Notes under the pieces: generated by a model
Seen by the model: only the letters and a program-made list of their open reading frames with translations
Database searches by the model: none
Told to the model about the DNA's origin: nothing
Program-made: the position numbers and the translations under genes
DNA from: a virus
Lineage: Duplodnaviria; Heunggongvirae; Uroviricota; Caudoviricetes
DNA length: 4,755 nucleotides
Virus record (IMG/VR): IMGVR_UViG_2671180411_000012
Direction: 5' to 3' (one strand)
Shown: positions 1 to 4,755 of the stretch, in pieces
How the letters are laid out: every line of letters starts with the position of its first letter
Position numbering within the stretch: the first letter of the stretch is position 1

Positions 1-119
1 GTCCGGGCATGAAGATACCCCGCGCTCAGCGTGGACTGATGTTCAGACGCCCATGCAGGCGCACCGGATACGGCCAGACAAATGGCTGCGGACAAAATGG
101 CGGCACAAACTTTACGCAT
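1..119 (-). CDS. lom: Lom-family outer membrane protein (Ail/Lom/OmpX family), N-terminal 39 codons only; the gene runs off the window at position 1
   Basis: Minus-strand ATG at 119-117 is preceded by GAGAGG 5 nt upstream. Translation is MRKVCAAILSAAICLAVSGAPAWASEHQSTLSAGYLHAR..., a typical Sec signal peptide with an A-W-A cleavage motif. It is near-identical to the N-terminus of phage lambda Lom as I recall it (MRKLYAAILSAAICLAVSGAPAWASEHQSTLSAGYLHA...). Position immediately downstream of J matches lambda gene order. Not in the ORF track because it has no stop inside the window. Confidence 0.85.
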   Translation of the reverse strand, partial: MRKVCAAILSAAICLAVSGAPAWASEHQSTLSAGYLHAR

Positions 120-140: not shown

Positions 141-167
141 AATAAAAAAGGCGTCATTCCTGACGCC
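141..167 (-). terminator. Rho-independent (intrinsic) terminator between J and lom
   Basis: Perfect 7-bp inverted repeat ggcgtca (150-156) / tgacgcc (161-167) around a 4-nt loop. On the minus-strand RNA this is GGCGUCA-GGAA-UGACGCC (GNRA tetraloop) followed directly by UUUUUUAUU (plus-strand 149-141). It lies about 22 nt downstream of the J stop codon. An A-tract upstream makes it potentially bidirectional, but the U-tract is best on the minus strand. Confidence 0.65.
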
Positions 168-189: not shown

Positions 190-1958
190 TCAACGAATAC
201 TGATGCCGGAAGCCGCTTTTTTGGTCACAATCACCGTACAGTCGGTGATATTGCCTGCCCCCTGATTGCCTTTCTGGAAAATCTTAAACTCCAGAGTGAC
301 GCTACCACCACCACTAGGCATATCAATAACTGCACTGTAACTACCGGGAATGGCACCTTTAGTTTCTCTGGATGCGATTAATACGCCGTTTTTGCGAACT
401 TCAAAACCATAACCCGTGTATCGCGTGCCTCCTGGGTTATTTCCGCTCCCCGGATCGTCATACGCTATACCGTTAAAAATAATGGGCGGAATAATAATCT
501 GGCGGTCAAAGTTATGATCATCGCTTATGGTGACTGTAACCGTCCCGTTTGGTGTTTCCGTGTTACCCCACGTACCAGCCTGTTTCGGAAATGATTTGGA
601 TACAGCTTTAACGAAGTCACCTCTGACCTGAGTCGCCTCCAGCATGCCCTTAATCGTACAGTTTTCATTTACCGTGACATTGTTGAGCGTCCCGGCGTTC
701 GCATTCACACTGCCACTGATATCCGCATTTTTAGCGGTCAGCTTTCCGTCCGGAGTCAGGGAAAATGCCGATGGATTTCCACCGCTGGTAATGGTGGGGG
801 CCGTCAGGCGTTTCAGGAACACGTCGTTCATGAATATCTGATCGCCCTGACCAACAAACATCGGTTTTGTGTTGCCATTCGCAGGATTAACCATCGCAAT
901 CCTGTCCGCCGCCAGCAGCACCTGACTCTGCATGCCGTCAGGGGTGTTCTCAATACCGGCACCAATACCCGCGATATAAAGGCGTCCGTCCTGCATCTGC
1001 TGCAGCTTCACAGCCCACATGCTGTTCAGGTTATTATTTGTATCAACCTGAACCTTCTGTATCTGCTGAATTGCCGCACTCTGGTCTTCCAGTTTCTTAT
1101 TGACGGTCTGCGTGATTTCATTGCTGACATCCGTAATGGACGTCCTGATTTCAGCCAGGTCAGGCGCAAGCTGACCGTTATCAATCTGCGTCCACAGCTC
1201 CTGAGCCAGATGGGTTTTCCCTATCTCGCCTTTGAAAAAATCCAGATAACCGGATGCATCATCACTCGGCTGACCAACAGCCTCCACGAATGCCGATTTG
1301 CCAACGGTGTTCACACTGCGGATATAAAAGTAATAATCATGGCCCGGTTTGATATTGATACTGGCGGCTATCCAGTACAGCGCCGTGCCAAGATAGCGTG
1401 CTGTGGTTTCAACCTGCCTGATATCCGCAATCCGCTTTTCCGAGAACCAGAACTCAAACTGTACCGTCGGATCATAAACCGCAAGATGCGGCGTGGCGGT
1501 TATCTGAAAATAGCCCGGCGTCAGCTCAATCCGCGACAGCGCTGCCGGTGCGGCAATCCGGAACGATACCGACGCCGGATCGCCCTGCTGCCCCCACGCA
1601 TTTACTGCCCGGACTGTCAGCCTGTAGTTCCCCAGCGCCAGTTGTGTGAAGCGGTAAGTGGTTTCCGTCGTCCGGGCCGTGCTGACCAGCCGCTCACTGC
1701 CGTCATCCGCTGTTACGGTCAGACGGAGCAGGAAGCTCACGCCCTTCACCACCTTCGGCGTGTCCCAGCGCGCCAGCACCTGATATTCCCCGCTGTCTGC
1801 GGTGACTTCGGCAGTCAGGTGCTGCACCGCTGGCGGCGTGACACCATTCACCGTGCCGCTCTGGTCGCCGTCAAAGTGCGCCCCGTTATCCACGATGGCT
1901 TCTTTTTCCGGCACATGCTGCACGGCGGTGATGGCATACGTGCCGTCGTCGTTCTCAC
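190..1958 (-). CDS. J: Host specificity protein J (tail tip / central tail fibre), C-terminal segment: second FN3-like module to the stop codon (TGA at 192-190)
   Basis: This is the low-coordinate part of the 970-aa minus-strand ORF (190..3102). It reads [30 protein letters not shown]...[30 protein letters not shown]...[55 protein letters not shown]...[10 protein letters not shown]. Long blocks match my recollection of phage lambda gpJ (e.g. [43 protein letters not shown]). The last ~170 residues are diverged from lambda. Bounded upstream by the N-run at 1959. Confidence 0.93.
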
Positions 1959-2576
1959 NNNNNNNNNNNNNNNNNNNNNNNNNNNNNNNNNNNNNNNNNN
2001 NNNNNNNNNNNNNNNNNNNNNNNNNNNNNNNNNNNNNNNNNNNNNNNNNNNNNNNNNNNNNNNNNNNNNNNNNNNNNNNNNNNNNNNNNNNNNNNNNNNN
2101 NNNNNNNNNNNNNNNNNNNNNNNNNNNNNNNNNNNNNNNNNNNNNNNNNNNNNNNNNNNNNNNNNNNNNNNNNNNNNNNNNNNNNNNNNNNNNNNNNNNN
2201 NNNNNNNNNNNCCAGGCATTTACCGCCCGGACTGTCAGCGTGTACCGTCCCAGCGCCAGTTGCGTGAAGCGGTATGTGGTTTCCGTCGTCCGGGCCGTGC
2301 TGACCAGCCGCTCACTGCCGTCATCCGCTGCCACGGTCAGGCGAAGCATAAAGCTCACCCCCTTCACCACCTTCGGCGTGTCCCAGCGCGCCAGCACCTG
2401 ATATTCCCCGCTGTCTGCGGTGACTTCGGCAGTCAGGTGCTGCACCGCTGGCGGCGTGACACCATTCACCGTGCCGCTCTGGTCGCCGTCAAAGTGCGCC
2501 CCGTTATCCACGATGGCTTCTTTTTCCGGTACATGCTGCACGGCAGTGATGGCATACGTGCCGTCATCGTTCTCAC
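1594..2576. repeat. Direct repeat pair of a 365-bp FN3-like domain module of J (copy 1 at 2212-2576, copy 2 at 1594-1958), separated by the N-run
   Basis: Manual alignment gives 18 mismatches in 365 nt (about 95% identity), offset exactly 618 nt. There is a 170-nt perfectly identical core (1742-1911 vs 2360-2529); mismatches cluster at the NAW-proximal end plus 3 near the ENDDG end. Most changes are synonymous; protein differences are M/L, A/T and RYT/NYR. Confidence 0.9.
1959..2211. other. N-run (253 nt): assembly gap or masked sequence inside J
   Basis: Uninterrupted n characters. Flanked on both sides by the ~95% identical 365-bp FN3-like module; the copy-to-copy period is 618 nt, which keeps the reading frame. 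Confidence 0.95.
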
Positions 2577-2749
2577 GGATACTCACACAGCGGAACAGGC
2601 GCTGGCGCAACGTCGGCAGCTTCAGCCCCCACACGCTGTATTCAGCAACGCCGTCAGGAACACGGCTCACTTTCACCTTCACGCCGTCGGTGACGGACTG
2701 AACCTCCACGCTGACCGGATTGCCACTTCCGTCAACCAGGCTTATCAGC
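2212..2749 (-). CDS. J: Host specificity protein J, internal segment (LISLVDGSGNPVSVEVQ... through the first FN3-like module ending ...[12 protein letters not shown])
   Basis: Same reading frame as 190..1958 (codon phase is preserved across the 253-nt N-run). Translation [68 protein letters not shown]...[14 protein letters not shown] matches the central region of lambda gpJ as recalled. Bounded by N-runs on both sides. Confidence 0.9.
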
Positions 2750-3026
2750 NNNNNNNNNNNNNNNNNNNNNNNNNNNNNNNNNNNNNNNNNNNNNNNNNNN
2801 NNNNNNNNNNNNNNNNNNNNNNNNNNNNNNNNNNNNNNNNNNNNNNNNNNNNNNNNNNNNNNNNNNNNNNNNNNNNNNNNNNNNNNNNNNNNNNNNNNNN
2901 NNNNNNNNNNNNNNNNNNNNNNNNNNNNNNNNNNNNNNNNNNNNNNNNNNNNNNNNNNNNNNNNNNNNNNNNNNNNNNNNNNNNNNNNNNNNNNNNNNNN
3001 NNNNNNNNNNNNNNNNNNNNNNNNNN
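2750..3026. other. N-run (277 nt): assembly gap or masked sequence inside J
   Basis: Uninterrupted n characters. The J frame differs by 1 nt between flanks, and the run is much longer than the ~22 residues that separate ...GGRVLA from LISLVDG... in lambda gpJ as recalled. This points to an estimated-size scaffold gap, not exact masked sequence. Confidence 0.95.
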
Positions 3027-4291
3027 ACCGCCAGCACGCGCCCGCCGATGCTGATACCCGCATAGTCATCATCACAGATTTCAATGACATCGCCCGGCAC
3101 ATGGCGAAGCCCTTCTGCGCCCACGCTGAAGTCCACGGTCTGCGTTTCCAGCAGTTCTGTTTTAATCAGCCACAGCCCGGCGCGGTGTGCCTGCCCCCGG
3201 CTGGTACAGCCAAAGGCATCCATCTTCGTGACGTTACGACCGTAACGGACAATGGCCTGCGTATCCTCCACAAGCTCTGTCGCCGTCTCCCAGCCGTTAT
3301 CCGGGTCAATCCAGTTCACCTCAACGGCATTATGGCGGTCTTTCAGGGCGCTGAAACTGTAGCGGAACGGCGCGCCATCATCCGGCATCACCACATTACT
3401 GCGGTTATAGGCCCACACCTTATCCGACTGTCGGTCCTGCACGAACGTCAGCGTCTGCCCGTTCCATACCGGCATACAGCGCATCGCCGAGCAGAAATCA
3501 CTGAGCACATCCCACGCCTTGCGCTGTGTGGTCAGCCAGGCATTACAGGTGATGCGCGGCTCCGTGCTGCCAAAGCCGTCCGGCACCGACTGGTCACAGT
3601 ACTGGCCGATGACATACAGCGCCCATTTATCCACATCTGCCGCACCAAGACGTTTCCCCATGCCATAGCGCGGATGGGTCAGCATATCCCACAGACACCA
3701 GGCCATGTTGTTGCTGTATGCCGGTTTTAACGTTCCGTCCCAGATACCGCTGTATTGCCGCGTCTGCGGATTATAGTTCGACGGCACCTGCAGAATGCGC
3801 CCGCGAAGATGATAATTACGGCTCACCTGCTGGCTGCCGAACTGTTCCGAGTCCACCTGCACACCGACCAGTGCCGTGTTCGGGTAGCACTGTTTCACAT
3901 CGATGATTTCGGTGTATGACGACCAGAGCGTTTTGTTCTGCAGCTGGTCTGTGGTGCTGTCCGGCGTCATTCTGCGCATCCGGATATTAAACGGGCGCGG
4001 CGGCAGGTTATCCACCACCACCGAGGCCAGATACTGCGAGGTGGTTTCCACCAGTGCCTGTACACCGAAGGTAAAACGCAGTCGGTCAATGTTTGCCGAC
4101 GTGATGGTCCGGGTGATCGGCGTGTCATATTTCACTTCCGTACCCAGCACCGTCTCGGAGCCGGAGGATTCAAACCCCTCCGGCGGTGTCTGCTCCTGCT
4201 CACCTGCCCGGAACACCACCGTGACACCGGAGATATTGGTATTCCCCTCACTGTCCAGCACCGGCGTACTGTTCAGCAGCACGCTTTTTAA
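3027..4291 (-). CDS. J: Host specificity protein J, N-proximal/central segment (LKSVLLNSTPVLDSEGNTNISG... to ...EICDDDYAGISIGGRVLA)
   Basis: Minus-strand frame of the 516-aa ORF (2732..4282); its apparent start is an internal GTG (V of LKSVLLNS), not the true start. Near-identical to my recollection of lambda gpJ from roughly residue 50 onward (LKSVLLNSTPVLDTEGNTNISGVTVVFRAGEQEQTPPEGFESSGSETVLGTEVKYDTPITRTITSANIDRLRFTFGVQALVETTS...), except for an in-frame absence of ~35 residues after ...ALVETTS. The frame is offset by 1 relative to the 190..2749 segments, so the 277-nt N-run does not preserve phase. The ADKPG tail of this ORF and the MCRAMSLK... head of the 970-aa ORF are wrong-frame read-through artefacts. 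Confidence 0.9.
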
Positions 4292-4541
4292 NNNNNNNNN
4301 NNNNNNNNNNNNNNNNNNNNNNNNNNNNNNNNNNNNNNNNNNNNNNNNNNNNNNNNNNNNNNNNNNNNNNNNNNNNNNNNNNNNNNNNNNNNNNNNNNNN
4401 NNNNNNNNNNNNNNNNNNNNNNNNNNNNNNNNNNNNNNNNNNNNNNNNNNNNNNNNNNNNNNNNNNNNNNNNNNNNNNNNNNNNNNNNNNNNNNNNNNNN
4501 NNNNNNNNNNNNNNNNNNNNNNNNNNNNNNNNNNNNNNNNN
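4292..4541. other. N-run (250 nt): assembly gap or masked sequence between two overlapping J N-proximal segments
   Basis: Uninterrupted n characters. The flanks carry overlapping, not consecutive, J protein sequence. Confidence 0.95.
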
Positions 4542-4755
4542 CTTTTTCCGTCACCCAGCCACCGTTACGCTGTATCTGAACCAGCAGGCGAACTTCAGAC
4601 GGATTCCTGTCTCCCTTTGAGGTGGTTTCCACCAGTGCCTGTACACCGAAGGTAAAACGCAGTCGGTCAATGTTTGCCGACGTGATGGTCCGGGTGATCG
4701 GCGTGTCATATTTCACTTCCGTACCCAGCACCGTCTCGGAGCCGGAGGATTCAAA
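4542..4755 (-). CDS. J: Host specificity protein J, separate N-proximal fragment (FESSGSETVLGTEVKYD...ALVETTSKGDRNPSEVRLLVQIQRNGGWVTEK); overlaps in protein content with segment 3027..4291 and runs off the window end
   Basis: Minus-strand frame of the 147-aa ORF (4288..4731). Its upper 137 bp are nucleotide-identical to 4038-4174. It then continues with KGDRNPSEVRLLVQIQRNGGWVTEK, which is present in lambda gpJ as recalled but absent from the 3027..4291 copy. It is therefore a second, more lambda-like J allele fragment or an overlapping contig end. Confidence 0.8.

Follow-up and report, generated by a model that had tools for sequence, protein, structure and literature searches.

The question raised by this locus is whether a stretch of viral DNA, parts of which encode the same segments of the tail tip protein J twice, can be read as one J gene, or whether it was put together from several J genes during the assembly. 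The stretch analysed here (the window) comprises 4,755 nucleotides of a Caudoviricetes virus, IMG/VR record IMGVR_UViG_2671180411_000012. The original prediction, made from the letters alone, was that J is present in it as overlapping and non-collinear pieces, probably in a chimeric scaffold of two or more J alleles.

The window consists of four sequence pieces, referred to as A to D, and of three N runs of 253, 277 and 250 bases, which are arranged as follows.

1-1958: piece A as a whole stretch, including the start of lom (piece mapping)
1..117, minus strand: beginning (5') of lom, Ail/Lom outer-membrane protein, truncated where the window starts, translation MRKVCAAILSAAICLAVSGAPAWASEHQSTLSAGYLHAR
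150..167, minus strand: terminator-like hairpin GGCGTCAGGAATGACGCC followed by TTTTTT, between the J stop (190-192) and the lom start (117)
190..1958, minus strand: J part of piece A, aa 578-1131 (lambda numbering) and the stop codon at 190-192 (blastx against lambda J, ORF, Pfam)
1959..2211: N run 1, 253 N; the flanking pieces A and B overlap by 365 bp in the references
2212..2749, minus strand: piece B, J aa 520-698, allele 2 (blastx, reference mapping)
2750..3026: N run 2, 277 N; each of the four reference J genes places B and C 63 bp apart
3027..4291, minus strand: piece C, J aa 42-497 without aa 127-161 (blastx, translation, Pfam)
4292..4541: N run 3, 250 N; the whole of piece D falls within the reference span of piece C
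4542..4755, minus strand: piece D, J aa 81-151 (blastx, repeat search)

All four pieces are parts of the lambda-type tail tip protein J (gpJ/TipJ), encoded on the minus strand. Their amino acid identity to lambda J in blastx was 100% for D, 89.7% for C, 96.6% for B and 66.8% for A, and the RefSeq label "gpJ: phage attachment tail tip protein J" underlies thousands of their matches in complete E. coli genomes. Six J domains (FNIII-A_GpJ, Phage-tail_3, Ig_J, Ig_J_second, Phage_Tail_Tip and Ig_GpJ_C) were found above the Pfam gathering cut-offs and in the expected order, the first two of them in piece C, where FNIII-A_GpJ is broken, and the other four in piece A. The lom portion comprises the first 39 codons (117-1), and the RefSeq label under the matches of this region is Ail/Lom family protein. 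The hairpin at 150-167 was picked up by a consensus scan as a pattern match only, with a 7-pair stem containing 5 G-C pairs and a T run.

In order to see how the pieces relate to intact genes, they were mapped to the complete J genes of four E. coli genomes, namely IHE3034, EC2, MB56 and 4/1-1. In all four references the pieces lie in the correct order and orientation, yet they do not abut, and all three joins made through N runs are non-collinear with every one of the four genes. The overlap of A with B is 365 bp long, at 94.8% identity (window 1594-1958 versus 2212-2576). From B to C there are exactly 63 bp in each of the four references versus 277 N in the window, and D is nested within the reference span of C. 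In the coordinates of the reference L001, A ends at 4764, B occupies 4400-4937, C occupies 5001-6021 and 6117-6370, and D occupies 6040-6253; the three further references repeat this pattern. The excess of N run 2 over the references is 214 bases, and piece D (4542-4755) is exactly as long. The agreement may be a coincidence or a trace of the placing of D by the scaffolder. As for the ends of the window, bases 1-5 were left unaligned in the best matches, and position 4175, which is equivalent to the base just past 4755, differs from three of the four references.

The J proteins of the five complete genomes examined are 1131-1165 aa long and none of them contains such a duplication. A single continuous ORF of about 1130-1165 aa is absent from the window, where segments are duplicated and missing and C is out of frame with B. 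The ORF found mechanically at 190..3102 on the minus strand (970 codons) crosses two N runs, and it arises because A and B share a frame across N run 1.

The duplication noticed in the original prediction concerns pieces C and D, and the repeat search located its two copies.

4038..4174, minus strand: repeat copy 1, J aa 81-126, inside piece C
4619..4755, minus strand: repeat copy 2, inside piece D

The 137-bp identity claimed for these two stretches was indeed exact (a direct repeat at 100%), and its length is far above the chance expectation for a window of 4.7 kb. The peptides quoted from the letters could also be confirmed: the minus strand of 4755-4542 reads FESSGSETVLGTEVKYD...ALVETTSKGDRN...WVTEK, and the reading restarts in 4291-3027 as LKSVLLNS...FESSGSETVLGTEVKYD...ALVETTSQYLAS.... 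The lambda numbering needed a slight correction, as D covers aa 81-151 in blastx (approx. 83-150 had been given) and C starts at aa 42 (approx. 50 had been given).

The second overlap, between pieces A and B, was analysed in the same way.

1594..1958, minus strand: part of piece A overlapping B, J aa 578-698, allele 1 (direct repeat versus 2212-2576)

The two sequences differ by 19 mismatches in 365 nt, 14 of which fall on third codon positions. In total 17 codons are affected, 13 synonymously and 4 non-synonymously. Since the 19 differences are mostly synonymous, A and B are two evolved alleles, and the pattern is that of diverged functional alleles, which errors of sequencing would not produce. 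Five complete genomes, E. coli EC2, NCTC9082 and three SW0716 strains, have a J that matches piece B at 100% identity. The identity to the J gene of EC2/NCTC9082 was 89-93% for A, 97.3% for C and 97.7% for D. Within the overlap, piece A differs from the EC2/NCTC9082-type J at 19 sites and from the J of MB56 at only 4. Over the C-terminal part of J, which contains the receptor-binding domain (193-1000), the DNA identity was 76-89% to IHE3034 and EC2 and 98% to MB56, LD93-1 and NCTC9967. The overlap at 1594-2576 is the strongest evidence for two mixed J alleles, and the sequenced material contained at least two of them.

The other pieces were less easily matched. The best full-length match of piece A in complete E. 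coli genomes was 98.0%, and among 5,426 such genomes, searched also with sub-pieces of the window, there was no match above 98.3% for A, C or D. The fact that A, C and D stay at or below 98.3% to any complete E. coli genome, versus the 100% of B, counts against the reading of the window as a chimeric scaffold. These pieces may represent rare alleles, or else consensus mosaics produced by bubble-popping between paralogues.

Beyond the 137 shared nucleotides the copies in C and D diverge: D reads VETTS-KGDRNPSEVRLLVQIQRNGGWVTEK, as in lambda, and C reads VETTS-QYLASVV. Piece C lacks 105 bp, that is 35 codons corresponding to lambda aa 127-161, which are present in every reference. Of this missing segment 77 bp are found in D, at 4542-4618. 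The claim that C re-encodes the stretch of D thus holds over the shared 137 nt and fails beyond it, where C is without the 105 bp that D partly holds. When piece C was used as a 1265-bp query, every match listed aligned in two parts over 1370 bp. The gap takes out the middle of FNIII-A_GpJ, the Pfam match of which is split into two stretches. A short direct repeat is found at its junction (4037/4038).

4038..4047, minus strand: 10 nt of microhomology where the 105-bp gap was closed in piece C, GAGGTGGTTT, read on the minus strand as AAACCACCTC (T-T-S codons)

In the references the 105-bp segment lies between two copies of AAACCACCTC that share one codon phase, and C keeps one of these copies (4038-4047). 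The intact junction sequence is ...CTCCCTTTGAGGTGGTTTCC....

The junction was looked for in several collections. A 44-nt probe with 22 nt on each side of the breakpoint was covered over at least 80% of its length, the threshold for a match, in none of the 5,426 complete E. coli genomes. All matches listed end at base 32 of the probe, and they reach 32 nt because the probe spans the 10-nt microhomology. The exact junction 40-mer CCGAGGCCAGATACTGCGAGGTGGTTTCCACCAGTGCCTG was not found by a pattern scan, run without a positive control, of species-representative genomes, and a degenerate 32-mer of the junction at the protein level was not found in genome, viral and metagenome contigs, likewise in a scan without a positive control. 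A junction-centred query of 95 aa was run against a database of 5.8 billion proteins, and the junction was absent from the best 30 of 229 candidates; these 30 matches were all short (54-164 aa). This last negative result is weak, since the database is clustered at 90% identity.

Two origins of the gap have to be weighed. It could be a real in-frame deletion by slippage between the AAACCACCTC repeats in one J copy, with piece D representing the intact paralogue; the scaffold would still be chimeric. The gap is exactly 105 bp long, and in every reference a copy of the 10-nt direct repeat borders it on either side, with identical codon phase; this layout is the classical signature of a slippage deletion. 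Moreover, typical k-mer assemblers are unable to join sequences over a 10-nt overlap, and reads crossing the junction probably exist. Against this stand the absence of the junction from the genomes, the viral and metagenome contigs and the best protein matches searched, its position in a scaffold of which every N-run join is wrong, the reappearance of missing bases in a neighbouring contig beside the identical 137-nt flank, and the loss of the middle of the FNIII-A_GpJ domain. Some scaffolders also fuse blunt ends of contigs that share only a few bases, and the junction may be such a mis-join at the 10-nt repeat. On balance we regard a real deletion as a tentative reading, with a chance somewhat below even. 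Whether the junction is a deletion or a mis-join, two versions of this segment of J are present in the data.

J is a multi-copy gene in E. coli. The number of J-like places per complete genome has a median of 3 and reaches 14-15. The single complete genome of strain 4/1-1 carries two J paralogues that are 96% identical over 2.5 kb and share exact runs of 100-227 bp between SNPs, among them runs of 227, 170, 161, 159, 153 and 129 bp. The 95% identity of A and B and the exact 137-nt run of C and D appear similar to what is seen in this pair. Since many "partial" J proteins at NCBI sit on contigs of 200-500 bp, some of them with more than 100 and up to hundreds of member sequences, J often lands on very short contigs in draft assemblies. 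It has been described that E. coli prophages contain repetitive and paralogous features beyond the resolution of short reads (PMC5359411).

The best explanation of the window, with a probability of about 0.9, is that it is a chimeric scaffold, in which four contigs from at least two near-identical J alleles were joined with wrongly sized N gaps, and hence an assembly artefact. The non-collinear joins, the allelic differences between A and B and the multi-copy nature of J all bear out the chimera of more than one J allele that had been proposed at the outset. The warning that the J model is not trustworthy as a single locus also stands, and since three of the three joins are non-collinear, it extends to the whole window. 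The non-collinearity at N runs 1 and 2 lies outside 3027-4755, the part to which the original prediction referred.

The events leading to such a scaffold could have been the following. The alleles would be approx. 95-100% identical over stretches exceeding the resolution of the assembler. The assembly graph would branch at allele-specific differences and yield short contigs, some of them specific for one allele (A versus B) and some carrying a common repeat (the 137 nt of C and D). Links from read pairs of different copies would then bring the contigs into an order and orientation close to those of the gene. The distance estimates would be wrong, so that contigs which overlap or lie 63 bp apart would be set approx. 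250-280 N from each other. The apparent restart of J would thus be the property of no single DNA molecule. In this reading the window is a short draft-assembly scaffold from the J-lom region of lambdoid prophages, and perhaps an entire one: both of its ends lie at polymorphic sites, which suggests that it is a whole scaffold ending at branch points of the assembly graph. Two observations do not fit smoothly. The N runs (253, 277 and 250) are positive size estimates, and the true distances are negative or small. The exact run common to C and D exceeds the k-1 overlap that neighbouring plain de Bruijn unitigs should have, and therefore some step of repeat resolution or path merging must be assumed.

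The same artefact could have arisen from alleles of mixed strains or of a metagenome bin, and not from several prophages of one genome. The window alone shows only that at least two alleles were present, and the finding that B is a known E. coli allele, and that no complete genome matches A, C or D above 98.3%, would fit two source strains. With a median of 3 J places per genome and 96% identical copies in 4/1-1, a mixture is unnecessary, and we consider this source unlikely. An origin of the alleles from several prophages in one genome is favoured, because multiple J paralogues per genome are the norm in E. coli. A structure that is partly biological, consisting of a private 35-residue deletion in one paralogue or, more remotely, of in-frame tandem duplications (e.g. 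of a 206-aa unit) under the Ns, is in our opinion very improbable. A further reading, a real arrangement in which a single J carries partial tandem duplications (aa 81-126 and aa 578-698) with their junctions under the N runs, could rely on A and B being in frame across N run 1 at a spacing of 618 = 3 x 206. The C/D spacing (581) and the excess of the B/C gap (214) are out of frame, and the frame of any spacing carries little weight here, because the lengths of the N runs are estimates. Such a gene would require three independent rearrangements, each of them exactly under Ns. The 206-aa unit ignores the boundaries of the Ig domains and would cut through an Ig-like domain, and no duplication of this kind was seen in the J proteins (1131-1165 aa) of the five complete genomes examined. 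Besides, A and B are 5% apart, mostly by synonymous changes, and B is the J allele of other strains, which means two lineages and not a recent duplication. A real duplicated J is slightly less probable still than the partly biological structure.

The N runs might also be masks laid over contiguous and correct sequence. The three runs are of similar length, and some stretches in the genome collection are N-masked. Masking in place keeps collinearity, however, and the flanks here overlap by 365 bp, lie 63 bp apart versus 277 bp, or are nested in each other. This is the least probable of the readings considered and we give it hardly any weight; a masked but otherwise normal J gene is excluded by the non-collinear flanks at all three N runs, and masking could be upheld only in combination with real tandem duplications. 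A diversity-generating retroelement was considered separately and rejected: the mismatches between A and B are not confined to adenines (C/G, T/C, G/C, T/G, A/T and G/A, in both directions), and the C/D repeat has zero mismatches.

The practical consequences of the preferred reading, the chimeric scaffold, concern the use of the record. Gene models called on it would be spurious, like the 970-aa ORF at 190..3102, and automatic annotation could yield a fused J protein that is spurious and contains runs of X. J typing, the inference of receptor specificity and prophage counting based on IMGVR_UViG_2671180411_000012 would be wrong. No new biology would be implied by an artefact in a well-known gene, and the value of the observation lies in the warning against the use of this J model. 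If the 105-bp deletion were true, cryptic prophages would gain a further example of a decayed tail gene, a point of minor significance.

Compared with known systems, the window shares with lambda gpJ (the central tail fibre or tail tip attachment protein of the TipJ family) the J domain set in its usual order, and lom comes after J, an order seen also in lambda and four E. coli prophages. Unlike lambda J, it lacks a single intact ORF: no piece covers aa 1-41 or 498-519, aa 81-126 and 578-698 each occur in two copies, and one copy is without aa 127-161. Towards its C-terminus (piece A) the window J is only 67% identical to lambda J, and its host-receptor specificity probably differs from the specificity of lambda J. 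The closest likeness is to the chimeric short-read scaffolds formed at paralogous genes of lambdoid prophages in E. coli drafts. Compared with these, the only oddity of the window is the 105-bp junction in contig C, which is unique and lies on a 10-nt repeat. The other features are the same in both: sized N gaps stand between short contigs, the order of the contigs is roughly right, the distances between them are wrong, related genomes carry several copies of the gene, and neighbouring contigs show allelic overlap.
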